From assembly GCA_018712565.1 (NCBI GenBank), contig DVGU01000057.1, positions 1 through 52,789 of the forward strand: 52,789 nt of DNA, read 5' to 3'. Numbering within the stretch: position 1 is the first letter of the stretch; each line of letters starts with the position of its first letter. The stretch comes from Candidatus Faecimonas gallistercoris (lineage in GTDB: Bacteria; Bacillota_I; Bacilli_A; RF39; UBA660). The notes below the pieces were generated by a model, which was given only the letters and a program-made list of their open reading frames with translations, made no database searches and had not been told where the DNA came from. The translations under genes and the position numbers were made by a program. Of this stretch, positions 18,178 to 51,960 are shown piece by piece.

Positions 18178-18219
18178 AACTGTGCAATTATTGGGTAATA
18201 GTTGCACAGTTGTTTTTTT
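18178..18219 (+). terminator. Strong terminator upstream of the T4SS genes
   Basis: AACTGTGCAATTATT-GGGT-AATAGTTGCACAGTT 15-bp stem plus T7. Confidence 0.8.
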
Positions 18220-18239
18220 GTATATGAATAAAAGAAAGG

Positions 18240-18530: not shown

Positions 18531-18542
18531 GTGTAATGCTTT

Positions 18543-19931: not shown

Positions 19932-19944
19932 GAGGAATGAATTT

Positions 19945-20247
19945 ATGTATATTACAGTAAAATCAATAAAAAGAAATTTAGGTTTTAAAGGTATCGAGGT
20001 ATCTGATATTATTATTGCTTTACCAATATTAATCTTATTTATAGTCTTATTTTGCTTTACACCACTCAAAATACCTTCTATTGTTGGATTAATGATTGGA
20101 ATTTTTTGTTTACTACCTATTAATGTTAGTAAGAAAAATAGAATGTATAAAGTAATAGGTTTAATTTTTAAATATTTATTTAGAAATAAGATATATGTAT
20201 ATCAAAGGAAAGGAGAGGTGGACAACTTTGAAAAAACAAGTAACTAA
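19945..20247 (+). CDS. PrgI/VirB3-like membrane protein
   Basis: 100 aa, two TMs, immediately before VirB4. Confidence 0.7.
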   Translation: MYITVKSIKRNLGFKGIEVSDIIIALPILILFIVLFCFTPLKIPSIVGLMIGIFCLLPINVSKKNRMYKVIGLIFKYLFRNKIYVYQRKGEVDNFEKTSN

Positions 20248-22735: not shown

Positions 22736-22914
22736 AACGATTAAGTGGTCGGCAGTTAAGAAAAGAGTTTAAGAAGATATACTTTGATGAGTTTGATGAT
22801 CCAAATGAATCTTTTATGGATTTCTTGTTAGACTTAATTCCAAAGAAAATATTAATAGAAATTATTTCAAAAGGGGAACATTATTATTCCTCTATTTTTA
22901 GTAAGTATAAATAA
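22732..22914 (+). CDS. Small hypothetical protein
   Basis: Start and stop overlap both neighbours. Confidence 0.65.
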   Translation: MKRLSGRQLRKEFKKIYFDEFDDPNESFMDFLLDLIPKKILIEIISKGEHYYSSIFSKYK

Positions 22915-23840: not shown

Positions 23841-23859
23841 AGGAAGCACATTTATAATG

Positions 23860-24125
23860 GCTATTTTATGATGGTAGCCACTTTTAAAGAAAAAGGTAGC
23901 CACAATATTTGTTGATATTAAAGGTATTTTTTATATAGGGTAGCCACTTTTGTTATTAAAAGTAGTCATTTTTGCAAGTGCAAAAATAGTAAGACACCAC
24001 TATTTTCCCTTTATGCCATAAGGAATAAAAGGATTTGTGGTGTCGTTCTTCTTATGCCCATTAAAAATATGCAATATTTTTATTAAGAAAAATACCTTAA
24101 AAAAGTAGAAAGTGGCTACCTATAA
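23860..24125. other. Candidate oriT
   Basis: Intergenic region before the RHH/relaxase operon. GGTAGCCAC at 23873, 23895 and 23939 plus an inverted copy at 24109-24120; IR ATTTTTGCA-AG-TGCAAAAAT (23968-23987); IR GACACCAC/GTGGTGTC (23993-24044). Confidence 0.65.
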
Positions 24126-24147
24126 ATTAAAGAAAGGAGTTTGTAAA

Positions 24148-24354
24148 ATGGTAAAAGGTTTAGTTAGAACTACATTAAGAATTGATAATAATTTAAAAAC
24201 TAGAATAGAACTTTTAGCAGTTAAAAATAATTTAAGTTTCAATAAAATGCTAACTTATCTAATAGAACTTGGCTATAATTCCTACATGGAAAAATTTGAT
24301 AAGTATTACGAAATACAAAATAAAAAAATTGAAAGAGAGGAAGAAGATGAATAA
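24148..24354 (+). CDS. Ribbon-helix-helix DNA-binding protein
   Basis: VRTTLRIDNNLKTRIELLAVKNNLSFNKML; GAAAGGAG RBS. Confidence 0.8.
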   Translation: MVKGLVRTTLRIDNNLKTRIELLAVKNNLSFNKMLTYLIELGYNSYMEKFDKYYEIQNKKIEREEEDE

Positions 24355-24811
24355 GACTAGAATTTATACAGATGAAGAAATAAGAGTTTTATTAAGTAAT
24401 CCTAATGTTGTTAGAATTAGAAATAAAAGTCAGATACTTTATAAAAATAGTTTTAAACTTTGGGCTGTTAAAGAAAAATTATCTCATAGCGAAAAGACTG
24501 CAAAAGAAATATTTACTGAAGGTAAGTTTGATGTAAATATGTTAGATGACAGAACTCCACAAAAAAGGTTAAACTCATGGATGAAGAAATATAAAATATT
24601 TGGAGAAGATTATTTTTCTGATTCTAAATCTCATTATCAAACAAAAGGAACAATTTTTGATAAAGATAAAGCAGAACATAACTTTGTAAATTATGTTAGA
24701 AAAGCAGTACATAATCCAAAGTTTGTAGCATTCATAATTGATAGAGATGAAAAAAATAATCTTCGTATAACTAATTTAGTGAGTATTGAAGATGAAAAAA
24801 CTAACAGTTAG
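24347..24811 (+). CDS. Protein with IS3-family OrfA-like HTH domain
   Basis: YTDEEIRVLLSNPNV...YKNSFK..AV...EIF...FD...RLNSWMKKY...G pattern; no OrfB follows. Confidence 0.65.
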   Translation: MNKTRIYTDEEIRVLLSNPNVVRIRNKSQILYKNSFKLWAVKEKLSHSEKTAKEIFTEGKFDVNMLDDRTPQKRLNSWMKKYKIFGEDYFSDSKSHYQTKGTIFDKDKAEHNFVNYVRKAVHNPKFVAFIIDRDEKNNLRITNLVSIEDEKTNS

Positions 24812-25121
24812 ATTAGAAGATTATATTTATGATAGACTTTATCTTGTAGCAAATGATAATACCACATCAGTAAATAAAGTTGTGGCTAGTATTTTAGAAA
24901 AATATATTAACGAGCCAAGAGAAATTAATTATTTAAAAGAAATAGATGAAAAATTAAAGAATATAGATGATAAGTTAGAAAAAATTTCTAAAAGACAATA
25001 TAAGCATTTTAAATTATCTCAACAACACTTTGCTAACTTTGGCTACTTATCAAATGCTGATATAAAAGAAGATAAATGTCTTAATGAAATATTAAATAGT
25101 AAGGACTCTTTCAATGAGTAA
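24792..25121 (+). CDS. RHH relaxosome accessory protein
   Basis: KKLTVRLEDYIYDRL...SVNKVVASILEKY followed by a coiled coil; overlaps the relaxase start. Confidence 0.75.
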   Translation: MKKLTVRLEDYIYDRLYLVANDNTTSVNKVVASILEKYINEPREINYLKEIDEKLKNIDDKLEKISKRQYKHFKLSQQHFANFGYLSNADIKEDKCLNEILNSKDSFNE

Positions 25122-26478
25122 AAAAAGTCCTAATGTTGTATTTAAAGGTAGATACAGTCTAGCACTTACTTGTAGAGATAATAAAAACAAATCATTAAAT
25201 TATAAAGAAGAAAGATTAAAAGATGTTGATGACATGATTGATTATTATTCTGATGAAAAGAAAAAAACAGTTGGAATGTTTGAATATTATATGGGGCATA
25301 CAAGAAACGAAAAATATAATCTTGTAATGGAAAATGGGTCTTATGCTACTAAACAAGATATAGCAAAAATTAAAACTAATTATAAAAAGTATATTGAAAA
25401 CTCAAATCTTTGGAAAGGCATCTTAAGTTTTAAAAAAGAATATCTTGATGAAAATATAGACATAAAAACATTAGAACAAAAGATAGCTAAAGAGGTAATG
25501 CCTCAATTTTTAAAGTATTGTGGTTTTAAGGATATGAAAAATATGAGTTTTGTTTTTGCAATACATACTAATAGAAAACATCAGCCACACATTCATTTTG
25601 CTTTTATTGAAAAAAAGCCAAATTACTTATATTGCGATAATAAAGTTAATTATAGAAGAAAAGGTAAAATAAGTCTTGATGAGCAAAGGTATTTAAAAAG
25701 ATTAGTGGAACTTGCTATTGAAAGAGAGAAATATTATACTCCATTACTTAAGAAAACTAATGAAGATATTGATTATTTAAAATCATATTTTAATCCAAAA
25801 GAAAAAAATTTTGCATTAAGAAATGTAAATGAGATTTATGTTGAAGAAGATATTTTAAAACTAGGAGAGTTAATAAAGAAATATCGTGAGCAAAATAATC
25901 AAACATCTAAAAAAGTAAAATATAATTCTATTAAAGATAATGAACTTGGTAAAGAAATCAAGACTTTGACTAAAAGAATTAAATCATATCTTTTTAATGA
26001 TGAAACATCTATTTTGTATGCTAGTAGAAAAGATATAAATAAAGATTTAGAAAAACTTAATGACTATTTTGATACTTTAAATAAAAATAATAATGTTAAA
26101 GAGTTAGTGGCAGATAATAGTATTGTTAATAAAAAAGAAGAATATATTGATAACTATATTTATAATTCAATAGTAAATCATGCTTTATATAAATATAATC
26201 ATATTTCTATGTATGTAAAAAATAAGAATAATACTGATAAAATCACTATTGATGATTTAATACAAGAAGTTGTTTATCAAAATAGTAAACGAAATAATTT
26301 TAGTGATAAGCAAAGAAGAAAGCAAGTGTTATATAATTATTTTAAAGGTAATAGTTATATTTCTAGATTTCCTAGTAAGCATAAAATAGAGAAAGCCATA
26401 AAAAATATTAATTATGAAATGGAAAAAGCATCACAAGAGTTTAGTAAATTATTCAATTATGATGATAAAACTAAATAA
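25114..26478 (+). CDS. HUH relaxase, MobL-like
   Basis: N-terminal tyrosines (MIDYYS, MFEYY), LWKGILSF, HTNRKHQPHIHFAF three-His motif. Confidence 0.85.
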   Translation: MSKKSPNVVFKGRYSLALTCRDNKNKSLNYKEERLKDVDDMIDYYSDEKKKTVGMFEYYMGHTRNEKYNLVMENGSYATKQDIAKIKTNYKKYIENSNLWKGILSFKKEYLDENIDIKTLEQKIAKEVMPQFLKYCGFKDMKNMSFVFAIHTNRKHQPHIHFAFIEKKPNYLYCDNKVNYRRKGKISLDEQRYLKRLVELAIEREKYYTPLLKKTNEDIDYLKSYFNPKEKNFALRNVNEIYVEEDILKLGELIKKYREQNNQTSKKVKYNSIKDNELGKEIKTLTKRIKSYLFNDETSILYASRKDINKDLEKLNDYFDTLNKNNNVKELVADNSIVNKKEEYIDNYIYNSIVNHALYKYNHISMYVKNKNNTDKITIDDLIQEVVYQNSKRNNFSDKQRRKQVLYNYFKGNSYISRFPSKHKIEKAIKNINYEMEKASQEFSKLFNYDDKTK

Positions 26479-26534
26479 CCTATGATATAATATTATCAGA
26501 TAGATAAATAGTAATTTGAAAGTGAGGAAATTTT

Positions 26535-26915
26535 ATGAAAGAATCAAAAGTAATAACATTTATCGGAGGATTCTATATATTTGGAGGTATTATTATATTA
26601 TTATCATTAATATTTAATGGTAGTGCTTTAAATATAGCTTTTGATTTGCCTAATGTACCAGATTATATCGTTAAGTTAATAGTAAGTCTTATATATATAC
26701 CATTAGGCTATTTATATATTAATAGAATTAAAAATTCAAATTGGGTTGTATTAGTATTAGCAATAATTTTTGGTTGTATTAGTGCTTCTTTAACAACAAA
26801 ATATAACACACAGCCATTTATAGGAAATTTGGTATATTCTTGCTTTGTAATAGTTATGACTTTCTTAAAAAGAAAAGAATTTAAAAATGGTTTAAAAACT
26901 CTATTGAAAAAATAA
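26535..26915 (+). CDS. Hypothetical membrane protein (four TM)
   Basis: Hydrophobic ORF with its own TG-n-TATAAT at about 26483-26491. Confidence 0.75.
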   Translation: MKESKVITFIGGFYIFGGIIILLSLIFNGSALNIAFDLPNVPDYIVKLIVSLIYIPLGYLYINRIKNSNWVVLVLAIIFGCISASLTTKYNTQPFIGNLVYSCFVIVMTFLKRKEFKNGLKTLLKK

Positions 26916-26988
26916 TAAAAAAATCTTGAGCATTTAGTATTTGTTTTACTATTACAGTGTGGTAAAATTATAATTGGAGGTGTATTTC

Positions 26989-27228
26989 ATGGAAAAGAAA
27001 CAAGTAAAGAAAATTGTAGCAATGGGAGTATCTTTAGTAGTTCTACTTATTCTTGGAATTATTTACTCACTTGTTTTCAATGATGGACGTTGGGTTAAAG
27101 AAATGTATATGCCAGATTATATTTTTTCTGTAAAAGATATTCCAATGTTTATTATTGGAGCACTGATAATTATATATGTTATTTATGTTTTAGTTGTTTG
27201 CATTAAAAATGCAAAAAATAAAAAGTAA
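26989..27228 (+). CDS. Small membrane protein, possibly truncated
   Basis: GGAGGTG RBS, two TMs. Confidence 0.65.
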   Translation: MEKKQVKKIVAMGVSLVVLLILGIIYSLVFNDGRWVKEMYMPDYIFSVKDIPMFIIGALIIIYVIYVLVVCIKNAKNKK

Positions 27229-27250
27229 TACAAATTACAATTTATCGAGG

Positions 27251-27283
27251 AGATCAACTTAATATAGTTAGTTGGTCTTTTTT
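27251..27283 (+). terminator. Rho-independent terminator
   Basis: AGATCAACT...AGTTGGTCT stem followed by T run. Confidence 0.7.
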
Positions 27284-27304
27284 ATTGTGAAGAAAGGAAG
27301 GATT

Positions 27305-27442
27305 ATGATAAAGATTATTTTAATGGCAATAGGAGTGTTCTTATTGCTTTTTTTATATTGTGCTTGTGTTATATCAAGCAAGTGTTCAAGAGAGGAGGAA
27401 AAAGATGAACAGTTTAGAAAGATACAAAATGTTATCAAATGA
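27305..27442 (+). CDS. 45-aa membrane peptide
   Basis: GAAAGGAAGG RBS; MIKIILMAIGVFLLLFLYCACVISSKCSREEEKDEQFRKIQNVIK. Below the ORF-track cutoff. Confidence 0.65.
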   Translation: MIKIILMAIGVFLLLFLYCACVISSKCSREEEKDEQFRKIQNVIK

Positions 27443-27741
27443 AGATAAATCTAATTTAACAATTTATAGTATTTATGACAGCATTTATGATGTTGCAAAA
27501 AATGAAGATATTAATATAAGTGATGATATAGTTACTGATATTAAAGAACTAGCTTATGACTTATATCTTGATGATGAATACATGAATTTATCTGCACCTC
27601 AAATTGCTTTTTTCTTAACAGAGTGCTATGCAAAAGATAATTCTTTTATGGATAAAGTTGCTGATATGGATTACTCTGACATTTTTACAAGCAGTTGATA
27701 ATGATAATTATGATTTTTATCAAGATGAAATGGAAAGATAA
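27405..27741 (+). CDS. Acidic hypothetical protein; stops at 27698 as given, ends DEMER at 27741 if one T is removed from the run at 27682-27686
   Basis: GAGGAGG RBS; the repaired frame reads DILQAVDNDNYDFYQDEMER-stop, 2 nt before the next ATG. Confidence 0.75.
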
Positions 27742-27743
27742 TT

Positions 27744-27881
27744 ATGTTTAAAAAGTTTAAGATATTATGGAGAAATTTTTGGGGTAGTAGATATTGGATA
27801 TATGAAGATGAAACTTTAACTAAAGAATTACTTATATATCATAGAAAAATATATGTTAAGGAAATAAAGGAGGGAAAATAA
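27744..27881 (+). CDS. 45-aa hypothetical protein
   Basis: MFKKFKILWRNFWGSRYWIYEDETLTKELLIYHRKIYVKEIKEGK fills the gap between two genes exactly. Confidence 0.55.
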   Translation: MFKKFKILWRNFWGSRYWIYEDETLTKELLIYHRKIYVKEIKEGK

Positions 27882-27882
27882 C

Positions 27883-28158
27883 ATGGATTTTTCAAAATTA
27901 AATTTAGAATTTGCTAATATGCAAAAAACAGTCGAAGATTATAACAAGATAATTACTTTGATTAATATGAGGATTAAAGATAATTTAAGGACTGTCAGTA
28001 AATACGAAACGAAAATGAAAAATACAAAAAATAAATTAGAGAAAGATTTAGCACATTTATATATAACATCAATTAAATGTGAAACTGAATTTTTAGAAAG
28101 TTTAGTAAAGGAGGATAAAAATAATGAACGAGAATCAGGGAATACTAAAAATGTATAA
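27883..28158 (+). CDS. Coiled-coil hypothetical protein
   Basis: AAGGAGG RBS. Confidence 0.75.
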   Translation: MDFSKLNLEFANMQKTVEDYNKIITLINMRIKDNLRTVSKYETKMKNTKNKLEKDLAHLYITSIKCETEFLESLVKEDKNNERESGNTKNV

Positions 28159-28519
28159 TGAAGAAGAAATAAAACAATTACTTAATAGTAACGAAAGGTT
28201 AGTATATATTGATGATGGGACTGATGAAATAGTAGCAAGGTATGAAGATTTACCAGATATTATTGTAGATGTAAATGAAAAACTTGGTCATACTGAAAAT
28301 TTAAAAGTATATGATTTTGATAATCAACTTCTTGATAAACCTATTTTAACAACAATAGGTTATTTTTTGGATAAATGTGATCCAAAAGTAAGAGAAGATA
28401 TTATTGATAGATTAGTTAACTTACAAACTGGAGTAGAACAAATGAAAGATTATAAAGTAATTGATGAAGATATGCTATTTGATGTTAGAATTGCCATGGA
28501 TGAAGAAATGGAAAGATAA
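28124..28519 (+). CDS. Acidic hypothetical protein ending EEMER
   Basis: AAGGAGG RBS, C-terminal tag. Confidence 0.8.
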   Translation: MNENQGILKMYNEEEIKQLLNSNERLVYIDDGTDEIVARYEDLPDIIVDVNEKLGHTENLKVYDFDNQLLDKPILTTIGYFLDKCDPKVREDIIDRLVNLQTGVEQMKDYKVIDEDMLFDVRIAMDEEMER

Positions 28520-28521
28520 GT

Positions 28522-30495
28522 ATGCCAATTCCTTATATTATCATTTTAGTTATAGTTGTATTAATAATTATCTTTTTATATTTTATTGAACCACTTATAA
28601 CTAGGCAGAAAATTAAAGATAATAATGAACATGGTAGTGCTAGGTGGTCAACTTTTCAAGAGATTAAAAAGAACTTTAGAAAAGAGAAGATAAATAATAT
28701 TATTGAAAGTGGTTTTCCAGTTTATTATTCAAAAGATAATAAATATGTATGGTTTGATATGACAACACCTCATTGGATTTATCTAGGATCAACTGGTAGT
28801 GGTAAAAGTGCTACTGCTGTTATTCCAGAATGTAGTTTTATAGCAACTGCTAAAAATAAAAAGAGTGTTTTTATTACTGACCCAAAGGGAGAAATTTTTT
28901 CTACAACAAGTAAGATGTTTAAAGATAATGGTTATAATGTATTTACATTGGATTTTAGAAATCCAGAATATTCTAATCATTCTAATTTACTTGAAACTGC
29001 AATAAATGAATATGAACTTTTTGATAAAAACGAGAAATTAAGTGATAAAGAAAAAAATGAAGAACTAAAAATTAAATATAAAAATGAGGCAATAACACAT
29101 TATGCTCAATGTAATCAAATAGTAAATGATATATGCACTATGATTATGGCTGATAAGACTGCAAAAGAGGCTTTTTGGAATAATAGTGCAAGTGATTTAT
29201 TATATGGTATTATTTTTTTGTTTTTAGAAGATTATGCTGATGGAAAAATTAAAAGAGAGCAAATAACATTAACATCTATGAAAAAATTTCAAAATAGTTC
29301 CATGACTGACAAAAACATAAAATCATTAAGAAAATATGTAGAGGCAAAGCCTTATGGATTTAAAAGTAAAGATAAATTGATACCAATTATTTCTACTAGC
29401 GAAAACACTTATAAAAGTATAACATCAATATTCAATGAAAGAATGACTCTGTTTGATGATGTAAATGTAGAAAATATAACATCAAATTCTGACTTTGATT
29501 TTGATATATTAGGAAAAGAGCCGACGGTATTGTATTGTTGCATACCTGATGAATCTAAAATATATTACACTTTAGTATCAGTAGTAGTATCTTTAATCTA
29601 TAAAAGATTGGTATTGTTATGTAATCAACAACCTAATAAAAAGTTACCAATCGAACTTGTATTTTTACTTGATGAATTTGCAAATACACCACCTTTACAG
29701 GACATTGAAACAATCGTATCAGTAGCTAGGAGTAGAGGAATGTATTTTCAATTTTTCTTACAAAGTTTTGCCCAACTTGATAATTTATATGGTAAAGAGG
29801 TTAGTCAAATAATACAAGATAACTGTGGACTTGCTTATTTAAAAACAAATACACAAGAAACAGCTGAAGCAATTAGTTCAAGACTTGGAACTCATGGAGT
29901 AGAAACCACCTCATTAAATTACTCTATTAGTTTACTTAATAATAATGGGAGTAAAGGCACAAGCCTTATTTCAAGAAGATTATTAACTGCTGATGAGATA
30001 AAACAATTACATTATAAAACTATTATATTCCCAACAATAGGTTATCCAATCTTTCGTGATACAGTAATTTATCAAAAGTTTAGTTGTTATAAAAAGGGAT
30101 TTATTGATAGAAAAATAAGACCACTTGAAAGACTAGCAAATACATACTATACAGTAGAACAATTAAAATTCAATAATAAAGAAAGTAATCAAGAGCCTAA
30201 ACTTGATACTGCTGAATCTAAAATTAAAACAAAGTTAGTATCAATAATAAATGAGGTATTAAAAGTCTTTGGAAAAATTGATTTTAATGTTGAATACGTT
30301 AAAGATGATGATAACATCATAGCCCAGTTGTATTTAGCACCACCATTATCAACTAACGATCTAAAAGAGTTAGAAGAATTAAGTAGTAAATTAGATTTTT
30401 TCTATAATGCTATATCAGATAAAGGAAAAGTTAATCGTAAAAATAGAAACTCATTAATTGAGGTTTTTTTAGTTAATAAAGAAAAAGAAATGTGA
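28522..30495 (+). CDS. virD4: VirD4/TraG type IV coupling protein
   Basis: N-terminal TM, HGSARW, Walker A GSTGSGKS, DPKGE, Walker B LLDEFAN, QSFAQL. Confidence 0.93.
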   Translation: MPIPYIIILVIVVLIIIFLYFIEPLITRQKIKDNNEHGSARWSTFQEIKKNFRKEKINNIIESGFPVYYSKDNKYVWFDMTTPHWIYLGSTGSGKSATAVIPECSFIATAKNKKSVFITDPKGEIFSTTSKMFKDNGYNVFTLDFRNPEYSNHSNLLETAINEYELFDKNEKLSDKEKNEELKIKYKNEAITHYAQCNQIVNDICTMIMADKTAKEAFWNNSASDLLYGIIFLFLEDYADGKIKREQITLTSMKKFQNSSMTDKNIKSLRKYVEAKPYGFKSKDKLIPIISTSENTYKSITSIFNERMTLFDDVNVENITSNSDFDFDILGKEPTVLYCCIPDESKIYYTLVSVVVSLIYKRLVLLCNQQPNKKLPIELVFLLDEFANTPPLQDIETIVSVARSRGMYFQFFLQSFAQLDNLYGKEVSQIIQDNCGLAYLKTNTQETAEAISSRLGTHGVETTSLNYSISLLNNNGSKGTSLISRRLLTADEIKQLHYKTIIFPTIGYPIFRDTVIYQKFSCYKKGFIDRKIRPLERLANTYYTVEQLKFNNKESNQEPKLDTAESKIKTKLVSIINEVLKVFGKIDFNVEYVKDDDNIIAQLYLAPPLSTNDLKELEELSSKLDFFYNAISDKGKVNRKNRNSLIEVFLVNKEKEM

Positions 30496-30509
30496 AAGAA
30501 GGTGTAGGA

Positions 30510-30986
30510 ATGACTAATATTGGAGATTATATTGCAAAAGCAAGAATAGATAAAGGCTATTCTATGAGAAAACTGGCTAGATTAAGTGGATTAGATAATG
30601 CCACAATATCTAAAATAGAATCTGGTAAAATCAAAAATCCGAAATTATCATTAATAAAAACATTATGTAGATATTTAGATATTGCTTATGAAGATTGTCT
30701 TTATGTTATGCAATTAGGTGCAACTTATAATCCTAATAACAATATTTTAATGAATTATTATAATAATATTTCTGATGATGAATTAAAAAGCACTTATAAA
30801 AATATCATAGGTAAAATAAATGAATATGATAAAATTTTATCTTATTTACACCAACAATTTAATCAAACTGATGATAAGAAATTATTGATAGATACAATAA
30901 AGTCTTATGAATATGAAAATAGAACTAATAAATATATTAGAAAAATTTTAGAAGAAAAAATACTTAATAAATATTTGAATAGTTAG
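30510..30986 (+). CDS. XRE-family HTH regulator
   Basis: [36 protein letters not shown]. Confidence 0.88.
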
Positions 30987-30997
30987 GAGGGTTAAAA

Positions 30998-33900
30998 GTG
31001 AATAAAGAGTTTGTAAATGATTTTTTTAATATAAGAGATGAAACTTTAAAAGATATTCAAGATAATTCTTATAATTGGAATCGCTTTATTATCTACTGGT
31101 CTAAAATACTAGATGATTATAGCATTGATAATGTTCTTAACTTATATTCTTATAATTCTAGTGGTAGAGTTTTTAAGACCTTTGATGATTGGAATAGTGA
31201 GGAAATTGGTAGAAGAATAAAACCTAAAAGTAGAGGAATCCCAATAATTGTTAATGATGCAAAAATATATGTATTTGATATTAGACAAACTTATGGTAAA
31301 GAATATAGGACTTGGAATTATAATCACTATATTGATAAAGACATTTTAAATTATTATCAAGATAGTTATAATATTGAAAATGATGATAGTAAAACATTAT
31401 ATGAAAATTTTTATGATACGTTTTATGAAATATCATTAAATCAAATAATGAATAATTATAAAACAATGTCATCAGATGAAGTGGAGTTCGTTGCTAAAAC
31501 AATGACTTCACTTTTTTTAGCAAAATCTAATTTTAATATAAATAATCTTCCAACAGTTTATGAAATGCTGGAAAATATGGAAACTGACGATATTTTAAAG
31601 TGTATGCAGATAGCCAATAAAGAAACTGCAAACATATATAATGATTTTATAGAGAAAACTGATAATCTTATTTCCATACAAAATGTTATTCGGGAAAATG
31701 TACTTAATCAATTTAAAGAAGATACATTTATAAGTGAAGAACAAAAGCAGAACTTTATATCATCAATAGAACGAAATTCATTCTTTAATAGTGAGCATAT
31801 TGAAAATATCTATAATGGATATGTTACTAGATATGAACGTGCTTTTAAGAAAATGGTAAATAATATTGTTGATGAAATAACTACTGAAAGCAATGTAGAA
31901 AGTATTAAAGAAACTAAAGTTGATGATAGTGAGGAGATTAATACTGATACATCTTCAATAAGTGATGAAGAAAATGTTAGAGAACAAATGTCATTATTTG
32001 CACCTAGAGAAGAAGAACTCGCAAATAAAATATGTGATATTTTCAATTCTTTTGATACAAAATACCAAAATACATTTGAAATTAATAATGTGGAATTACA
32101 AAAGTGGGAACATATTAAAAGTAAAAAGAGAAATTTATCTATTATTTTAACAAGTTCTTTGATAGGAGAGTTTGCAGATAGAGATAATAGTTTTACTTAT
32201 TTTAATAGTGATAAAACTGATGAAATAAAGTTAAATAATAGTATTGCAAATAATTATTTTTTACAAGAATTATATAAAGATAAAGATTTTTCAATATCAT
32301 TTACTCCTAGTATGATTCATATATTTTGGCATAACTTTGATGATAAAACTTTTGATATGAATATTCCTAGTACAAAACTAGTAGATCAAAGTGAGATAGA
32401 TAATCAAGAGTTAGAAAAAATTGATGATGAAATATCTGCAATTAATAACGATAAAGAAATTGATTATAAAGTAACAACAGCTGAAATAATACCTACTCAT
32501 GATGGTGTTGAAACTAATGTTATAGAAAAACATACTTATAATACTGTTGGAGAAGAAATAGAAGAATATCCTAAAGTTAATTATCATATTGCTGATGATA
32601 AAACTGATACAAGTTTTGGTGCAAAATCGAGATTTGAAGATAACGTCAAAGCAATAGAATTATTAAAAAAGTTAGAAACCGAAAATAGGAATGCAACTAA
32701 AGAAGAACAAGATGTTTTAGCACGATATGTTGGTTGGGGTGGAATTGCTGATGCTTTTGATGAAAGAAAAGAAAACTGGAAGAGTGAGAGAGAAAGATTA
32801 AAATTACTTTTAAGTGATGAAGAATATAAATCAGCATCTCATTCTACATTATCTTCTTTTTATACTCCAAATGTTGCGATAGATGGAATATATAAAGCCT
32901 TAAAACAATTTGGTTTTGAAAAAGGTAATATTTTAGAGCCTAGTTGTGGTATTGGAAATTTCTTTGGTAGATTACCTAATGAATTTGCAAACTCTAAATT
33001 ATATGGAATAGAGTTAGATAGTATAAGTGGTAGAATTGCTAAAAAACTTTATCCTAATGCAAAAATAGAAATAAGTGGTTATGAAGAATCAAAAGTTAGT
33101 GATGACTTATTTGATGTAGCAGTTGGTAATGTTCCTTTTGGTAGTAATACAGTTTATGATAGAAGATACAAAGATAAGTTTTTAATCCATGATTATTTCT
33201 TCCAAAAGACATTAGATAAAGTTAGAGATGGAGGAATAATCGCTTTTATAACAACTGATGGAACTCTTGATAAAAAAGATACAAAGGTAAGAGAATACAT
33301 TGCAAAAAGGGCAGAGTTTTTAGGTGCAATAAGATTACCAAATAATATGTTTACAGATAATGCCAATGCTAAAGTTACATCGGATATTATTTTCCTAAAG
33401 AAACGTGATGAATTAAAACATGATGTAAGTGATGAAAGTTGGATTTATACAAGTGAATATGATGATGGAATAACAATTAATAATTATTATATTGATAATC
33501 CTGATATGATGCTTGGTAAAATGGAATTGCATTCAACTGCTTATGGTTTTGACAATACATTAAGTCCAGTAGATGAAGATATTAATGTTTTAATGAATAA
33601 AGCATTAGAAAAGTTACCAACTAATAACTATGAACAAACTACTTTTATTCAAAACGAAGATAATGATTACGAGGTACTTGATGCTGATGATAGTGTTAAG
33701 AATAATGCTTTTGTTATTATAAATCAAGATGGTAAAGATATAATTTATCAAAGGTCTTTTTCTAGTTTAGTTCCTTATTCTATTCAAGAGGGAATGGTAG
33801 CAAAAAGAATAATTGGTCTTTGCAAGGTAAAGAATGCTTTACGAGAAGTCTTTGATGTACAACTTAATGATGGCAGTGATGAAGAACTATCTTCAGCACA

Positions 33901-36900
33901 AGAAAAATTAAGTAAAGTGTATGATGAATTTTATAAAAAGTATGGTTATATAAATGATAGTGTAAACGCAAGAGCCTTTGATAGTGATCCAGATTATTAT
34001 TTGCTTACATCTATTGAAAATAAAATTAGTAAAGATGATGAAGAAAATGATAAACCTAAATATGAAAAAGGAGATGTATTTACAAAGAGAACTATCAGAA
34101 AAAGTAAAAAGATAACAAGTGCAGAAAATGCTGAAGAAGCATTAAGGTATTCACTTAACAATCGTGGGTGTGTTGATTTTGAATATATGAAAACATTATA
34201 TCCAAAAGAGGAAAGTGAAATCATTGATGAACTTGATAATTTAATTTATCAAGATCCTGAAAAGATAAATGATTTTAATTATGGTTGGGTAATAGCCAGT
34301 GAATATTTAAGTGGTAATGTAAAACAAAAATTAAATTATGCTAAAACAGTTAATGAGGATAATAAGTTTGATAGGAATATAGAGGCACTTGAAAGAGTAC
34401 AACCTAGACCACTTGAATATGATGAAATAAGTATTAAATTAGGCTCTACTTGGATACCAGAAGATGTATATCATGAGTTTTGCTGTGAACTTTTAGATAT
34501 TCCTAGTTGGAATAAGAGTCAACTAAAGATTAAATATGCAAAAGAGGTCAATACTTGGTTATTTCAAGCTAGTGGCTTATATGGATATGGAGTAAAAAAT
34601 ACAAGCACGTGGGGAACAGATAGAGCAGATGCTTTATCTTTAATTAAAAACTCTTTAAATCTACAAAGTGTAACTGTTTATGATAAGTTAGAAGATGAAA
34701 GGCGAGTTGTAAATCCAGTAGAAACTGCTAATGCTAGAGAAAAACAAGAGGCAATAAAGCAAGAGTTTAAAGAATGGATTTGGAAAGATGAAGATAGAAG
34801 AAATAGACTTGTAAAATTATACAATGAACAATTTAATTGTATGAAAGAAAGAGAATATGATGGTAGTCATTTAACTTTTGATGGTATGAATCCAAATATA
34901 GAACTTCGACCACATCAAAAAAATGCAGTTGCTCGTGTTTTATATGGTGGTAATACTTTACTTGCTCATGCAGTTGGTGCTGGTAAAACTTATGAATGTA
35001 TTGCTAGTGCAATGGAATTAAAGAGATTAGGTATAGTTAGTAAGCCAATGTTTGTTGTGCCGAATCATTTGTTAGGTCAATGGGCTAATGAAATTTTAAA
35101 ATTATATCCTACTGCGAATATATTAGTTGCAACACAAAAAGATTTTGAAAAAACAAGAAGAAAAAAACTTATGGGAAAAATAGCGACAGGAGAATGGGAT
35201 GCAGTTTTAATTGCTCACTCTAGTTTTGGATTAATTCCTATGAGTAAAGAGTATGAACAAAAACACATGGAAGGACAAATAGAAGAAGTAGTTAATGCGA
35301 TTGAAAGAATAAAAGCAGAAACTAATGATAGTTTAAGTGTAAAGAAACTAGAACAAATTAAAACTAGCATGGATACCAAACTAAAATCGTTAATTGATAG
35401 ACCAAAAGATGATGTGGTAACATTTGAAGAATTAGGTGTCGATGAATTAATTGTTGATGAGGCACACTTGTTTAAAAACTTACCTATGTTTTCTAAAATA
35501 AGAAATGTTGCTGGAATAAATAATAGTGAATCTAAAAAAGCAACAGATTTATTTATGAAGATAAGTTATGTATTAGAAAATAATGGTGGTAAAGGTGCAG
35601 TATTTGCAACTGGTACTCCTATTTCAAACTCCATGGGAGAACTATTTGTTATGCAAAAGTATTTGCAACTTGATAGATTGCGAGAAATGGGACTTGAACA
35701 TTTTGATGAGTGGGCATCAACTTTTGGAGAAATTGTTAATAGTTTTGAAATCGCTCCTGATGGTAGTGGTTTTAGAACAAAAGCAAGATTTGCTCAATTC
35801 TTTAATATTCCAGAATTAATGACTTTATTTAAAGAAATTGCTGATATTCAAACATCTAAAATGTTAGATCTACCAGTTCCTAAATTAAAAGGTGGAGATT
35901 ATAAAACAGTAGTTGCTCCAAAAAGTGATGAACTTGCTGAATATGTTAATAAGTTAGCAGAACGTAGTGAAATTATTAGGAATGGTTGTGATCCAAGGGA
36001 TGATAATATGCTTTTAGTAACCAATGATGGTAGAAAAGCAGCACTCGATTTAAGAATGATAGATCCTAGTATGCCAGATTTACCTAACTCAAAAATAAAT
36101 ATGGCAGTAGAAAACATTTATAGAATATGGTTAGAAAACAAAGATGACAAGTTAACGCAACTTGTCTTTTGTGATTTATCTACTCCTAAAAATGATGGTA
36201 CTTTTAATGTTTATGATGATATTAAAAACAAACTTATTGCTAGAGGAGTACCAGCAGATGAAATTGAGTATATTCATAACGCAAAAACTAATCCTCAAAA
36301 ATTAAAACTTTTTGAAGATATGCGAAATGGAACAAAAAGAATTTTAATAGGATCAACTTCTAAAATGGGAGCAGGAATGAATGTTCAAGATAAATTAATT
36401 GCTTTACATCATTTAGACTGTCCATGGCGACCATCTGATATTGAACAACGTGAAGGAAGGATTTTAAGACAAGGTAATCAAAATGATGAAGTGGAAATAT
36501 ATCGTTATGTTACTGAAGGTAGTTTTGATGCGTATTCTTATCAATTAATTCAAACGAAATCTACTTTTATTAATCAAATAATGTCTAACAGTAATGGTGG
36601 TGGAAGAACTGCTGAAGATTTAGATAGAGATACACTCACTTATGCAGAGGTTAAAGCTCTTGCTAGTGGGAATCCTTTGATTTTAGAAAAGTTTAAAGTA
36701 GAAAATGAATTAAAACAATTATACTTATCTAAAAGTAGATATGATAAATCACATATTGAACTTGAGGCAAAATATAATACAGAATTACCACGTAAATTAA
36801 AATATCAAAAGCAATATTTAAGTGGTCTTGAAGAAGATGTAAAAAATGTCAAAGATTTGTCTGCAGATAATTTTGTAATTACTATTAAAGATAAAATTTA

Positions 36901-37345
36901 TGATTCTAGGAAAGAGGCTAGTACAAAATTTTATGAAAGTTTTTCTCTTTTAAAGTCTAGAGAAGAAACTAAAATTGGAGAAATAAGTGGTTTTGATATT
37001 ATTGGTACTAAAGATGAGTTATGGTATAAACCAGTTATTTATATACAAGGTGCTGGAAAGTATAAAGTTGAAATTAGTAATACTGATGAAATAGGTAATA
37101 TTTTAAAATTAGAAAATATGCTAAAAAGTTTTGAAAATAAAATTGGTACTGCTAAAGAACAAATCGCTTATACTGAAAAACAACTTATAGATGTTAAAGA
37201 GGAACTTGATAAACCATTTACACAAAAAGATAGAATTAAAGAATTACAAAAAGAAAAAGCAAGAATTGATAGTGAACTTGATTTAGATAAGCAGGAAAAC
37301 AATAGAAGTGTTGAGAAAACAACTGAAGAAGAATTAGAAAGATAA
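30998..37345 (+). CDS. ArdC-N-like domain + N6-adenine methyltransferase + SNF2 helicase (DarB-like), ending EELER
   Basis: N-terminal YS..N...W...GRRIK..SRGIPI...YVFDIRQT; [10 protein letters not shown] and GNVPF; [26 protein letters not shown]. Confidence 0.92.
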
Positions 37346-37355
37346 TTTTTTTTGC

Positions 37356-37395
37356 AAAAAACACTTGCATAATTTCTTTTTTTAAGTGATAAATA
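37356..37395 (+). repeat. 40-bp promoter-like element, copy 2 (upstream of recombination module)
   Basis: 36/40 identical to 12146-12185. Confidence 0.8.
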
Positions 37396-37545
37396 AATCG
37401 AAGAAAAAATGCTATATAACTACTTTAATTTCTTTAAATTTAGTTTTAATGCAAAGCGTTGAATAGTTATAAGCATAAAAATAAAAAGTCTGTTAAAAGG
37501 GCTAAAACAGGCTTTGGTAGTAATATGTATGGGAGGAATGATAAT

Positions 37546-38049
37546 ATGTATATTACTAATACGACAGAACAAGTCGTAAAATTAATTGAACAGTTAGAAA
37601 TTAAGTCTGATTTGACTAAATTGAAATTTTTGATTTATATATTTGATTTATTAAATAATAACCAAATAAATGATAAAAATGAGGTTAATCCAGATTTAAT
37701 TGATGATGGTGAATTAAAGATATTTAATTTTGAAGTGATTGGATTATCTCCAAACGCAGGTAATCTTTTATTACAGTATTTTGCTATGCTTTATAATGGT
37801 ATGACTGATAGTAAAGATGCGTATGAAGATAATGGAAATATTTTAGGTATTAATTGTGATAAAACTGATAAAGAATTTGCATCTAAATTTGAAAGACTAG
37901 ATTTTAATGAAAAATTAGATGTGTTTAGTGAGATAATAATTAGATATGATAATGAAACTTACTTTAATGAAAAGACTTTAGTATTGTCGCTTGATTCAAA
38001 GTTAAGTGGATATGATATTGCAAAACAAATTCAAAATTTTAAAAATTAA
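37546..38049 (+). CDS. Hypothetical protein
   Basis: GGGAGGA RBS before ATG at 37546; the upstream part of the track ORF is hairpin-rich leader. Confidence 0.75.
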   Translation: MYITNTTEQVVKLIEQLEIKSDLTKLKFLIYIFDLLNNNQINDKNEVNPDLIDDGELKIFNFEVIGLSPNAGNLLLQYFAMLYNGMTDSKDAYEDNGNILGINCDKTDKEFASKFERLDFNEKLDVFSEIIIRYDNETYFNEKTLVLSLDSKLSGYDIAKQIQNFKN

Positions 38050-38073
38050 GATTATATGTATCTATAAATTGTT

Positions 38074-38187
38074 ATTTGAAAACTTAATATTCTAAATAAT
38101 GATTTGCAAGGTGTATTCTCTTTCATTAAGAAAATATTGAGTTTCAAATTACGATAAATTAATGGAACTCAATAGAGTTCTTTTTTT
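38074..38187 (+). promoter_or_regulatory. Attenuator-like RNA switch with terminator
   Basis: Alternative stems 38074-38091/38133-38149 and 38135-38145/38164-38174, and terminator GAACTC-AATA-GAGTTC-T7. Confidence 0.6.
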
Positions 38188-38225
38188 GTGACTTTAATAA
38201 TATTCTTAATGGAAGGGAGATAAAA

Positions 38226-38396
38226 ATGATAAATTCTAGTGAACAACTTAATTATGAAGTGGAATTAATTTTAAATGAAAATTTATATAAAAAGAAAATA
38301 ATTACAGAAGACGTTTATAAAAAAGTTAATGAAAGATTGCTTAAATTAATAGAAATATATAAAACAAAAAATAAACCTATTAATGATAGTGGTTAA
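38226..38396 (+). CDS. 56-aa SHOCT-like protein, candidate recombination directionality factor
   Basis: GGAAGGGAG RBS; LNENLYKKKIITEDVYKKVNERL; directly upstream of the recombinase. RDF role is inference. Confidence 0.65.
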   Translation: MINSSEQLNYEVELILNENLYKKKIITEDVYKKVNERLLKLIEIYKTKNKPINDSG

Positions 38397-38415
38397 TAGG
38401 TAGAAAGGAGACATT

Positions 38416-40098
38416 ATGGAGTTATATAAGATTAGAAGTAGAATTTCAATGGGAGAAAGTTTATATGATCTTCCTTTAAAAGTTACATTTTATGCTCGTG
38501 TATCTACCGACAAAGATGTACAGTTAAATTCGTTAGATAATCAAGTTATGTATTTTAGAAATTTGATAACTGAAAATAAAAATTGGACATATGTTGATGG
38601 ATATATTGATGAAGGTATAAGTGGAACAAGTGTTAATAAAAGGGAAGATTTTTTAAGAATGATTGAAGATTCTAAAACAGGAAAGTTTGATTTGATTTTA
38701 ACGAAAGAAATATCACGATTTTCAAGAAGTACACTAGATAGTATCAAATATACACAAGAATTATTAGAAAATGGTGTTGGAGTTTTATTTCAATCGGATA
38801 ACATAAATACCATAATGCCAGATTCAGAACTTCGTTTAACTATTATGGCTAGTATTGCACAAGAAGAAGTTCGTAAATTAAGTGAGAGAGTGAAGTTTGG
38901 AATGAAAAGAAGTATTGAAAAAGGAAAAGTATTAGGAAATAGCGTTATTACAGGTTATAAAAAAGAAAATGGAAAATTAATAATAGTCGAAAAAGAAGCA
39001 GAAATGATAAGAATAATTTACGAAATGTATGCAACTGGAGAACATGGATTAGGTTATATATCTAATTATTTATATGAAAAAGGTTTTAAAACGAGAAAAG
39101 GTGGGTATATTCATACTACTACGTTGAGAAGAATTATAACTAATCCAAAATATAAAGGGTTTTATTGTACAAATACGGTTAAGCATTTGGATTATAAAAC
39201 ACACAAACAAATTAGGTTGCCTCAAAGTGAATGGGTAGTTTATGATAGCAATGGAGATATACCTGCTATTGTATCTCCTGTACTATGGGATAAAGCAAAT
39301 GAAATACTTGCAAATAAATCAAGTGGATATTGTGCAAAAATAAAAGATATGGGTGCATTCAAAAGGACAACAACTTATGGTGGATTACTTATATGTGCAG
39401 AACACAATGTTGCATTTAGAAGATTAACATCCAATAATAAAAATGTAAGCTGGAAATGTGGAGAAATGTTAAGACGTGGTATTTCTGCCTGTGAAAGCCC
39501 TATACTTTATGAAACTGAGTTAGATGATATTTTTCATAAAGTAATTGATAAATTGATAGAAGATAGATCAAAAATTGTTAAACATTTATCTGAATTATAC
39601 AAAGAAGCAAATAGTAGCAAAAATTATGAATATGAAATAAAAAAAGTATATAATCAAATAGATGAAATTAATTTAAAGAAAAATAAGTTATTGGATTTCT
39701 TGATGGAAGAAGTTGTTAGCAGAGAAGAGTATCAACGAAGAAATACAGAATTAGAACAAGAAATTGAAAATTTAAACAATAAAATAATTAAATTAAAAAG
39801 TGATGAACTATATGAAAAACAATTAAAGAAGAAGTATAAAGAAATAGATGAAAAAATTAATAATGAAGTAGATAGCGAGGAATCATTCCGAAAACTAGTT
39901 CAACTTCTTATTGAAAGAGTTGTTGTATCTAAAATAGATGGGAATAGGAGAAAAGTTAAATTAGATATTTATGCCAATGTAGTTGGTAAAAAATTAACTG
40001 TCTATGATAAGACAGTTTTAGACGACTCCTATTCATCACCATGTAGTCATAAGGAAAATTATGACTGCTATTCTTGCAATAGAGAATGGAAATCTTAA
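38416..40098 (+). CDS. Large serine recombinase (integrase)
   Basis: YARVST catalytic Ser, SRFSR, recombinase domain (NPKYKG), zinc-ribbon CAEH...C...C, coiled coil. Confidence 0.95.
   Translation: MELYKIRSRISMGESLYDLPLKVTFYARVSTDKDVQLNSLDNQVMYFRNLITENKNWTYVDGYIDEGISGTSVNKREDFLRMIEDSKTGKFDLILTKEISRFSRSTLDSIKYTQELLENGVGVLFQSDNINTIMPDSELRLTIMASIAQEEVRKLSERVKFGMKRSIEKGKVLGNSVITGYKKENGKLIIVEKEAEMIRIIYEMYATGEHGLGYISNYLYEKGFKTRKGGYIHTTTLRRIITNPKYKGFYCTNTVKHLDYKTHKQIRLPQSEWVVYDSNGDIPAIVSPVLWDKANEILANKSSGYCAKIKDMGAFKRTTTYGGLLICAEHNVAFRRLTSNNKNVSWKCGEMLRRGISACESPILYETELDDIFHKVIDKLIEDRSKIVKHLSELYKEANSSKNYEYEIKKVYNQIDEINLKKNKLLDFLMEEVVSREEYQRRNTELEQEIENLNNKIIKLKSDELYEKQLKKKYKEIDEKINNEVDSEESFRKLVQLLIERVVVSKIDGNRRKVKLDIYANVVGKKLTVYDKTVLDDSYSSPCSHKENYDCYSCNREWKS
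40045..40062. other. Inferred element/host junction (att site)
   Basis: In the carboxypeptidase frame the sequence reads ...HHHVVIR|KIMTAILAIE. Similarity to the family motif AS(I/T)TKIMT starts at the Lys codon 40055-40057. Confidence 0.75.
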
Positions 40099-40951
40099 TA
40101 AAAAAATAACGGTTGGTGAAGAAGTACTTTCCATGTATGGTACAAATATATATATAGAAGTTGGAGAAAAAATGCGACTTAGAGATTTAATTTATGGGTT
40201 ACTTCTTCGTAGTGGTAATGATGCATCTGTAGTAATTGCTCGTGCTATTGGGGGAAGCGAGGAAAAATTTGTTAAAATGATGAATCAAAAAGCCCATGCT
40301 ATTGGAATGAAAAATACAATATTTAAAAATCCACATGGATTAGACGAAGAGAGTGAGAACTATTCAACGGCATATGACATGGCATTATTATCAAAATATG
40401 CATATCAAAATAAGGTTTATCGTAATATTGTTTCTACAGATAAATATGAAGTTTCTACTGGAAAAAAGACGTATCTTTGGTATAATCGTAATAAATTGTT
40501 AACAGAGTATGACTATTGTACAGGAGGTAAAAATGGGTATACTCCTAGAGCAGGGAAAACATTGGTTTCTACAGCTTCTAAAAATGGATTAAATTTGACT
40601 ACAGTTACTTTATCTGATGGGGATATTTATAATAATCATCGTAATTTGTTTGATGATGCATTTTCTCGTTATTATAATTATAAAATTATTGATAAAAATC
40701 ATTTTGAAGTTGATAAGGAATTTGTTGAGGATGATGTATATATTAAAGAATCTTTTTATTATCCACTTATGAAAAGTGAGTTAAATAATGTTAAGACTAT
40801 TATTCGTTTTTTTAATGATGCTTCAAATGATAAAGTTGGTGTAATTAATGTATATTTATTTGATGATGAAATAGCAAAGATTCCAATTTATAAGAATAAA
40901 AAAAACAAAGAAAGTTCTTCGTTTTTAAGATGGTTTAAATCTTTATTTTGA
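40055..40951 (+). pseudogene. dacB: 3' part of interrupted D-alanyl-D-alanine carboxypeptidase (S11, DacB-like)
   Basis: KIMTAILAIE, SGNDA (SxN), NPHGLD, GGKNGYT present; signal peptide and SxxK serine absent. Confidence 0.85.
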
Positions 40952-50651: not shown

Positions 50652-51227
50652 ATGAATACAAGAAAAGTTATAAAAAAGAGATTAGTATTAAAAAAAAGTG
50701 TTAGAAATTTTATTACTAGAGTACTTATTACAGTTATTATTTTTTTAGTTGGAATGATTTTAGTAAAAAGTGATAGTAAAATAAAAGCAACAATATTAGA
50801 TTGTGTATATGATAATAATTTTGAATTTACGAAAATTAAAAAATTTTATCAGAAATATTTTGGTAATATTTTATCTATTGATCAGTTGGCTGTTAATGAA
50901 CAATCTGTATTTAAAGAAAAATTATCTTATGAAAAAGCTAATACTTTTTTAGATGGAGTAAAGTTAACAGTAGAGAATAATTATATGGTACCAGTACTTG
51001 AGAGTGGAATTGTTATTTTTATGGGAGAAAAGGAAGGATATGGAAATACTGTGGTAATAGAGCAAATTGATGGTATTGATGTATATTATTCTAATATTTC
51101 TACAGATGGTATTAAACTTTATGATTATGTAGAAAAAGGAACTTTGTTAGGAGAAGCGAAAAATAGAAAACTTTATTTAGTATTTCAAAAAGATGGTGAG
51201 TTTTTAAATTATAAAAAATATATTTAG
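50652..51227 (+). CDS. spoIVFA: SpoIVFA-like protein (M23/LytM fold, degenerate)
   Basis: TM plus GYGNTVVIEQ...VEKGTLLG without metal ligands; syntenic between mreD and an M50 protease. Confidence 0.75.
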   Translation: MNTRKVIKKRLVLKKSVRNFITRVLITVIIFLVGMILVKSDSKIKATILDCVYDNNFEFTKIKKFYQKYFGNILSIDQLAVNEQSVFKEKLSYEKANTFLDGVKLTVENNYMVPVLESGIVIFMGEKEGYGNTVVIEQIDGIDVYYSNISTDGIKLYDYVEKGTLLGEAKNRKLYLVFQKDGEFLNYKKYI

Positions 51228-51237
51228 TTATTTTGAG

Positions 51238-51960
51238 GTGCATCCTTTATTTTATTTGGTTGCTTTTTTTGCTATTATTACTGCTTCTTTTTTTCCTTTT
51301 TTAATTATTACTGTTTTGATATTAGTACATGAGTTTGGGCACTCTTTGATGGTGTATCTTTTTGGTGGAGAAGTTATTAAAATATTAATTTATCCTTTAG
51401 GGGGGATTTCTAAATTTTCTACTTCTTTTAATATTCCTTTAGTAAAAGAATTTATTATTTTACTTTTTGGTCCGTTATTTCAAATTATTGCTTGGTATCT
51501 ATTAATTACTTTATTTCCTGAAAAAGAAATGCTTATTTCATCTTATCATTATGGAATTTTATTTTTTAATTTACTTCCAATATATCCTTTGGATGGTGGT
51601 AAAGTTTTGTGTTTGTTTTTTCATAGAATATTTTCTTATCGATTCTCTTTTTATTTTACATTTGTAATTGGTTATTTATTAGTGCTTAGTTTTTTGATTT
51701 TTACATATTTTCATTTTTCATTTAATGTTATTTTTTTATCTATTTTTTTATTAGTTAAACTCACTAAAGAATATAGGCAAATACCTTATTTTTATGAGAG
51801 ATTTTTATTAGAAAGATATTTAAATCATTATTTTTTTAAGAAAAGTAAAATACTTAATTCTTCTAGTGATTTTCAAAGAGGGTATCATCATTTGATTAAA
51901 GATGGGGAATTATATTATTTAGAAGAAGAATATTTAGAAAAAAAGTATAAAAGTTATTGA
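51238..51960 (+). CDS. spoIVFB: SpoIVFB-like M50 intramembrane metalloprotease
   Basis: HEFGH, NLLPIYPLDGG; synteny. Confidence 0.82.
   Translation: MHPLFYLVAFFAIITASFFPFLIITVLILVHEFGHSLMVYLFGGEVIKILIYPLGGISKFSTSFNIPLVKEFIILLFGPLFQIIAWYLLITLFPEKEMLISSYHYGILFFNLLPIYPLDGGKVLCLFFHRIFSYRFSFYFTFVIGYLLVLSFLIFTYFHFSFNVIFLSIFLLVKLTKEYRQIPYFYERFLLERYLNHYFFKKSKILNSSSDFQRGYHHLIKDGELYYLEEEYLEKKYKSY

Follow-up and report, generated by a model that had tools for sequence, protein, structure and literature searches.

A conjugative element in the active-site lysine codon of dacB in an uncultured gut bacterium: a candidate for excision during sporulation

Can a conjugative element that cuts a sporulation gene through its catalytic motif also be the means by which that gene is put back together when a spore is made? 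The question is raised by a contig of 52,789 nucleotides from Candidatus Faecimonas gallistercoris (GenBank GCA_018712565.1, DVGU01000057.1), which was analysed whole and is called the window here (contig C36 of genome G000, an assembly of 1.29 Mb in 74 contigs, 89% complete). An integrative and conjugative element (ICE) sits exactly in the lysine codon of the SxxK motif of dacB, and its large serine recombinase (LSR) belongs to a family for which targeting of sporulation genes is supported across the host's family. We lean, if only slightly, towards the reading that the ICE excises in the sporulating mother cell, rebuilding dacB there while the spore keeps the element.

The 3' part of dacB lies at 40055..40951 on the forward strand and consists of 298 codons with no interruption, an S11 carboxypeptidase frame that covers Pfam PF00768 positions 42-236, without the signal peptide and the catalytic serine. 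As the original prediction stated, the host frame resumes with K-I-M-T-A-I-L-A-I-E at 40055 and the codons directly upstream are those of the element, part of a 560-residue LSR (38416-40098) whose frame spans the junction. It had also advised looking for a 5' part ending near AS(I/T)T, and a family search of the genome located the missing half on contig C62 (4577-4737; Pfam positions 11-49), with the signal peptide, the start of the domain and an A-S-V-T end (last residues L-I-A-S-V-T at 4735). Beyond 4735 the DNA is unrelated and a stop follows within a few codons. The element arm of attR (40035..40052, forward strand) is a 17/18 inverted match to C62 4740-4757, and the two arms are symmetric around AA, the first two bases of the lysine codon. 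Symmetric inverted arms around a central dinucleotide are the geometry expected of a serine-integrase attachment (att) site. Junction comparison, counting the A's at both ends, places the crossover dinucleotide at 40055..40056 on the forward strand (equal to C62 4736-4737). This AA is invariant in all 15 intact orthologues listed, and contigs from independent metagenome runs have loose ends at 40055/40056 on the right and 4736 on the left. With both halves and both arms found, an interruption of the SxxK motif of a dacB-like gene stands as claimed; the crossover had been put between the serine and the lysine, which is correct for the motif but not for the precise spot, inside the lysine codon. 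In another genome (G032), kept out of the split counts, the dacB halves are on two contigs (L040, G032 C28 6801-7469; L039), and the 3' half is preceded by ordinary genes without an adjoining recombinase, possibly a stranded split that could no longer be restored.

Metagenomes hold the unbroken form. A 1,250-bp contig from a chicken-gut metagenome of another study (run X11) equals window 40055-41200 with 0 differences, and its loose end of 30 letters is identical to C62 4706-4735, the last 30 bases of the 5' half. Because this contig spans both halves, they are one gene and the rejoined form exists in nature. A similar contig beginning at 40055 occurs in run X12. In X11, X12 and X15 the right end of the same element abuts, at 40056, dacB sequences from other hosts; in X7, X13 and X16 its left end continues, at the corresponding point, into the 5' halves of other hosts; and occupied and empty dacB alleles occur together within runs. 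Of the attB and attP junctions proposed as a check, the rejoined allele was found in X11, and no circle junction was found among the contigs listed. RNA contigs of X15 cover the recombinase gene, a weak signal that may be DNA and cannot show transcription.

The split gene is a predicted orthologue of dacB, not of vegetative DacA or of DacF. The best solved relative of the window's piece is a chain named DacB, which we take to be the B. subtilis protein (E 8.7e-71 vs 3.1e-29 for the next), and an intact orthologue ranks it first by a similar distance (1.6e-79 vs 5.1e-33). The host's other S11 gene, presumably DacF-like by its motifs, places the same chain 10th of 12. The earlier preference for dacB over dacA or dacF agrees with this result, a ranking of structural relatives rather than a reference tree; NCBIfam profiles do not separate the three. 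Open reading frames (ORFs) resembling spmA and spmB, labelled by eye and by our own assumption, follow the dacB orthologue in 10 of 29 loci and also at L037, L056, L059 and L060; an NCBIfam search gave no match for them. Such genes are absent from the dacB locus in the host's genus, and there is no Gate-family gene in G000 at its 89% completeness. A CATA-type -10 box, read by eye, stands just ahead of the ribosome site in 26 of 28 dacB orthologues, including the host's, against a background of 121 of 1286 host upstream regions. The same box precedes the host's spoIVA, sigK, spoVD, spoIVFA, yabP and cotE-like genes (names in part our assumption). It agrees with the sigmaE consensus printed in PMC3416734. 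Among 21 genomes of the genus, dacB is intact in 15, present only in cut form in 2 and without a detected orthologue in 4. Partial matches in G029 and G005 were considered as dacB splits and rejected, the pieces being dacF-like. A restriction-endonuclease-like ORF (called by eye, with no NCBIfam match) is divergent from dacB in many genomes of the genus, for example at L034 3721-4461 on the reverse strand.

How far the insertion is part of a pattern was examined in 401 genomes of the host's family, UBA660 of the order RF39, and 118 of these have an LSR match at E 1e-90 or better. From 100 genomes, 132 of 162 matches were examined, with the host's own proteins as the sole reference for targets. 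A cut piece of a sporulation gene adjoins 107 of the 132 loci: spoVD in 55 (three sites), a ytlA-like gene in 18, dacB in 12 (two sites), dacF in 12, spoIVA in 6 and spoVS in 4. The ytlA-like name is our assumption for a binding-protein gene with Pfam NMT1. The remaining 25 loci are unassigned; in nine of them such a piece lies at a greater distance, and none of the 25 fell within any other gene of the host. At least one cut target is carried by 88 genomes (at least 22% of the 401), and since kin are not independent, the number of sites weighs more than the number of genomes. In a tree of 142 LSR sequences (FastTree, midpoint root) there is mostly one clade per site. Ca. Faecimonas and Ca. Aphodocola are among the uncultured gut Bacilli that carry the nearest recombinases, one LSR at 60% identity cuts the SxxK lysine of spoVD and, among the matches listed, most Clostridial relatives with readable junctions cut ylmC/ymxH. 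According to the table in PMC3416734 (ylmC by its NCBIfam name), the targets are sporulation genes in B. subtilis. The counts support a family-wide preference of these recombinases for sporulation genes.

Several observations on recombinases of this kind are recorded for their own sake. A second LSR-bearing ICE interrupts spoVD in the host, at the S-C/N of the SxN motif (G000; locus L201); the spoVD pieces lie at C7 9189-10283 and C32 17265-19818, both on the reverse strand, and the small partner gene of this second ICE has a CATA-type promoter. Among the Clostridial recombinase ORFs (L063-L096), many are interrupted by a stop close to residue 175 or 213 and continue in a different frame, with the breaks recurring at the same places; a programmed frameshift or a lesion common to these ORFs could account for this. 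A dacF-like gene beside spoIIAA-sigF-spoVA is interrupted around residue 227; the serine recombinase there is unrelated and distant (L043 2863-10608 in G037; L208, L209), and the site is a recurring one. Finally, a human-gut metagenome contig (L309) has the clade of the window's recombinase at the SxxK lysine of a dacF-like paralogue, a secondary site.

The split genes show signs of being maintained. With one locus fetched twice and one unclear locus dropped, 113 gene pieces were counted: 91 are intact to the gene end, 18 break off at a different insertion site that is itself recurrent, and the other 4 have a stop or a frameshift. Some genes consist of several open pieces at once: three for dacB in G406, three or four for spoVD in G111, G393 and G392. 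At the dacB SxxK site some elements measure 4.5-8 kb, carry no transfer genes and retain the LSR and both ends (L060, G096, G128, G079, G406); the 3' half in G079 is frameshifted. The recombinase of the 4.5-kb mini-element at L060 (10001-11629) is 91% identical to that of the window and ends just before attR. Genes for small acid-soluble spore proteins (SASPs) are present in 60 of 73 genomes that were picked by hand for a split in dacB, dacF, spoVD, spoIVA or spoVS, against 25 of 40 unselected genomes, and in all 11 with split dacB.

Excision would be run from a compact unit at the right end of the ICE. The LSR gene (38416..40098, forward strand; Pfam PF00239, PF07508, PF13408) reads its last 14 codons from dacB DNA in a different frame. 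Translation of the attL arm alone yields, in all 6 elements checked, a conserved tail 35-47 residues long whose final pattern is like that at the C-termini of unsplit relatives. As the LSR frame crosses attR and the attL arm encodes this tail, the integrated and circular forms would encode different recombinase ends. Just upstream is a 56-residue SHOCT-like gene (38226..38396, forward strand; a weak SHOCT_2 match below its cut-off), a candidate recombination directionality factor. A similar small helical ORF precedes nearly every LSR of the family, the arrangement of the directionality factors of skin, SPbeta and gin. A hairpin resembling an intrinsic terminator (38164..38188, forward strand) divides the recombination unit from the genes upstream; a scan found two hairpins, one per strand of this same structure, against a shuffled mean of 0.0. 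A conserved AATA-n3-TTA box (38199..38208, forward strand) is the probable -10 element of the partner gene and recurs at 56 of 59 loci in six target classes (dacB-SxxK and five others), compared with 60 of 1286 upstream regions in the host. One change separates it from the sigmaE box, and a sigmaA-type TAnnnT hexamer can also be read within it. A CATA box like that of the host precedes the partner gene in two sister clades, in 15 of 17 members of the ytlA clade and 14 of 19 spoVD-SxN elements, which suggests sporulation control there quite well. A sigma-70 scan of the partner promoter gave matches at chance level only. A forespore-type promoter was considered and rejected by eye against the sigmaF and sigmaG boxes of the lineage's gpr and SASP promoters.

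The host has, by gene content, most of a predicted sporulation programme: spo0A, spoIIGA-sigE, an unbroken sigK, sigF-like and sigH-like genes, SASP genes, gpr and spoVAC/E. The spoIVFA/spoIVFB-like pair claimed for it, with a sigmaE-like promoter, is indeed seen at 50652..51960 on the forward strand of the window, in host context, with Pfam M23 and M50 domains and a CATA-type box (the gene names are our assumption). In the genome, 89% complete, sigG was not found. Reading its absence as evidence of a broken programme was considered and rejected in favour of a likely assembly gap: 19 of 21 genomes of the genus have sigG, and in the five with both genes on one contig it lies ~7-14 kb upstream of dacB, which is beyond the start of C62. 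The host's spoVS and dacF carry CATA-type boxes (G000 C21 10880-11140, 14527), and their sigma control in this lineage may differ from that in B. subtilis (sigmaH; sigmaF/G). Tandem arrays of unusual genes of the sigma-70 family, 300-560 codons long with similar N-termini, occur at L045-L048 and L053 (G000 C11, C54).

With an integrase, a VirB4 protein, a coupling protein and a relaxase predicted in one integrated element, the element is classed as an ICE. Its right-hand 40 kb (1..40056, forward strand), recognized by ORF content and cognate att arms, runs off the left end of the contig. The left arm on C62 (4736-22635) adds 17.9 kb to the 40.1 kb on C36, with an unassembled interior gap between them; the ICE has a minimum of ~58 kb if the arms are contiguous, in keeping with the predicted size above 40 kb. 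The features of the right arm that follow, up to the helicase, are on the forward strand. They begin with a cargo region of ABC transporters, a two-component system and a GntR regulator (1088..9536; Pfam), followed by the transfer region, which includes a thioester/SpaA-repeat adhesin and a sortase (12894..15984; PF17802, PF08341, PF04203). A mating-pore cluster found by profile searches (18240..23840) comprises a pilin-like protein, a large membrane protein that may be VirB6-like and is without a family match, a VirB4 ATPase (20195-22735; best profile NF045975, below its cut-off) and an M23 peptidase. Next come a putative MobL-like relaxase (25114..26478), called from language-model features only, with an Atlas feature score of 0.97 to MobL clusters and no Pfam match, a VirD4 coupling protein (28522..30495; NF045973, above cut-off) and a SNF2-type helicase (30998..37345; Pfam). 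The C62 arm carries a helix-turn-helix (HTH) gene resembling replication initiators, more cargo and, at 20684-22606 (L035 5685-7604), a gene of the TetM/W/O/S ribosomal protection family, above the NCBIfam cut-off and 68-70% identical to Tet(O)-type proteins; it could not be named, and a likeness to Tet(44) is our unconfirmed assumption. Cassettes of ABC transporters with two-component systems, 65-70% alike, recur at window 1088-9536, at C62 7024-11618 and on C49, C28 and C18, and a 118-residue protein with a resolvase N-terminal domain is encoded inside the transfer region (window 16223-16579).

The ICE has evidently moved between genera into the same dacB codon, and recently: two hosts with DacB proteins of 51% mutual identity carry right ends that agree at 100% across 4,582 bp, and an identical right end in such divergent hosts argues for recent transfer, presumably by conjugation. 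Among the matches listed, all 7 LSRs from the genome collections at 77-100% identity end at this dacB codon. Another genome of the genus has the C62 left arm at 100% and the right end at 99%.

Taken together, the mechanism towards which we lean would run as follows. The LSR inserted the ICE into the active-site lysine codon of dacB, a gene that would be silent in growing cells, where the insertion would then be free of cost. During sporulation the terminator-insulated 56-residue gene would be switched on as directionality factor, and recombination of attL with attR would rejoin S-V-T to K and release a circle, on which the LSR frame would continue into the attL arm and gain the conserved tail of ~35 residues. 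The spore would retain the ICE. The same excision would also initiate conjugation, which makes the element a selfish ICE that tolerates or serves development rather than a switch built by the host.

A number of points weigh against this mother-cell reading. The element is plainly a selfish, recently transferred ICE. The CATA box is found in 0 of 13 partner genes of the dacB-SxxK class, which have the AATA form instead, and on a sigmaE-type matrix the window's partner promoter scores at the 94th percentile, or at the 99th when the matrix is used without its first two columns. Two of the target genes, dacF (sigmaF/G) and spoVS (sigmaH), are not mother-cell genes in B. subtilis. No SASP gene is seen in 13 of the 73 split-gene genomes, some of them nearly closed. 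Two mini-elements from different genera agree completely in the attL arm and almost completely in their genes; they still move, and their persistence could come from movement and not only from host selection. The unbroken allele in X11 may be that of an element-free strain. No arm-to-arm circle junction was seen among the assembled contigs and listed loose ends of 8 runs, and 4 metagenome and 2 viral-collection pattern matches were all attR; assembled contigs drop rare forms, so the absence of a circle is not proven. The dacB phenotype is itself mild: deletion left sporulation frequency unchanged in C. difficile, as reported in PMC13753750, and B. subtilis mutants are described in PMC13188902 as forming spores of lower heat resistance. 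Moreover, in the account given by PMC10868615, sporulation in RF39 is predicted and has never been shown for any member.

How else could the locus be explained? The family may simply use conserved catalytic-motif DNA in genes dispensable for growth as a safe place to insert and excise only to conjugate, so that carriers would make poorer spores or none. We think this rather unlikely, while granting that much here speaks for it: the spread has been so recent that the intact dacB halves of this host prove little, the partner promoter is not clearly of sigmaE type, loss of dacB is mild in model species, and a recombinase of the same clade entered the SxxK codon of a dacF-like paralogue (L309). 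Integrases also often favour conditionally useful genes, such as the competence genes discussed in PMC10083194. The difficulty comes from the sister clades, which cut spoIVA and spoVD in many genomes that have SASP genes. There the pieces show almost no decay, a single gene can hold as many as three elements, and two of the clades have sporulation-type promoters before the partner gene. Both spoIVA and spoVD are essential for spores in B. subtilis.

Excision might instead be untimed, the unit flipping at a low constant or stress-driven rate and dacB being expressed by the cells left empty. The yin element in yabG, of which PMC10747680 describes both forms at all time points, is a precedent; the sigmaA-type hexamer within the AATA-n3-TTA box, the X15 RNA contigs (which may be DNA) and the presence of both alleles within runs fit as well. 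Against such flipping, no circle junction appeared in X11 even at ~240-fold element depth, and a gene interrupted by more than one element would seldom be intact unless the excisions were coordinated; we judge it distinctly improbable. The layout itself could be misread if C36 were in truth preceded by the left arm of the second ICE (spoVD, C7), in which case one excision could not restore dacB. The end of reversed C7 does coincide exactly with the opening 100 bp of C36 (as also with those of reversed C37), and the end of C62 overlaps nothing. The overlap is, however, a repeated HTH gene at the start of C36 that both ICEs carry, while the C62 and C36 arms are cognate, occur together in the other genome of the genus with near-identical ends and flank complete elements on single contigs, so that we give a hybrid layout hardly any credence.

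Excision in the mother cell, the reading we lean towards, has well-known parallels. Like skin, SPbeta and gin, the dacB element splits the frame of a sporulation gene and has its own LSR and predicted att sites that would restore the frame exactly. With skin in sigK (SpoIVCA and Skr in B. subtilis, CD1231 and CD1234 in C. difficile; PMC6957869, PMC5025042) it shares an LSR and small partner gene at the element end, a split mother-cell gene and a frame restored by exact rejoining. Unlike skin, described there as a defective prophage fixed in sigK with proven sigmaE-dependent excision, the present element is a mobile ICE with a resistance gene, its target is dacB, sigK is intact, and a sporulation-timed excision is predicted. 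SPbeta in spsM (SprA and SprB; PMC4191935, PMC5499854) is likewise an active mobile element with one unit for spread and gene rebuilding, in the shared order partner gene, integrase, attR; it is a prophage, not an ICE, and its sprB promoter has been demonstrated to be of sigmaE/K type. The gin element in gerE of B. cereus ATCC 10987 (GirC and GirX; PMC5595907) is also non-phage, uses a serine recombinase and was transferred recently between strains, whereas the description there gives it three recombinases and no conjugation genes and the dacB element encodes its own transfer system. The yin element of C. botulinum V73 is similar in interrupting, by a serine recombinase, a sporulation gene not essential for spore formation; PMC10747680 presents it as prophage-like, in one strain and with measured excision, whereas here the family is widespread and excision is predicted from sequence. 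An ICEBs1 engineered with the SPbeta recombination unit (PMC6957869) made plain that a serine-integrase unit lets an ICE enter a sporulation gene; it is a laboratory construct, of which the dacB ICE would be a natural case. Targets named in the literature consulted are sigK, spsM, spoVFB, spoVR, gerE, kamA, yabG and spoIVFB. Keyword literature searches returned no element in dacB and no natural ICE in a sporulation gene, though the survey of Abe et al. 2013 could list more; the supplement text of PMC10083194 and PMC6957869, figures excluded, has no dacB, carboxypeptidase or SpoIVA term.

New relative to skin, SPbeta and gin are the target codon, the natural conjugative carrier, the resistance cargo and the family-wide pattern. 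The sporulation intervening elements known so far are few; they are prophages or immobile islands, and a gene mostly holds just one of them. Our survey suggests that split sporulation genes are routine in RF39. As a wider and more tentative possibility, one LSR-ICE family may have spread through the sporulation genes of an entire family of uncultured gut Bacilli, at no fewer than nine sites in six genes (dacB, dacF, spoVD, spoIVA, spoVS and the ytlA-like gene), in at least 22% of the species sampled and often with several elements per gene. To sporulate, such hosts would need to splice the chromosome at multiple positions simultaneously, and resistance ICEs would be locked in and ride in the spore. 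The many pairs of site-specific recombinase and partner with defined att sites are available for testing in laboratory strains. If excision is developmental, the split genes would be indirect evidence that these uncultured bacteria with reduced genomes really sporulate, and would provide a mechanism that keeps resistance elements in the spore formers of the gut.

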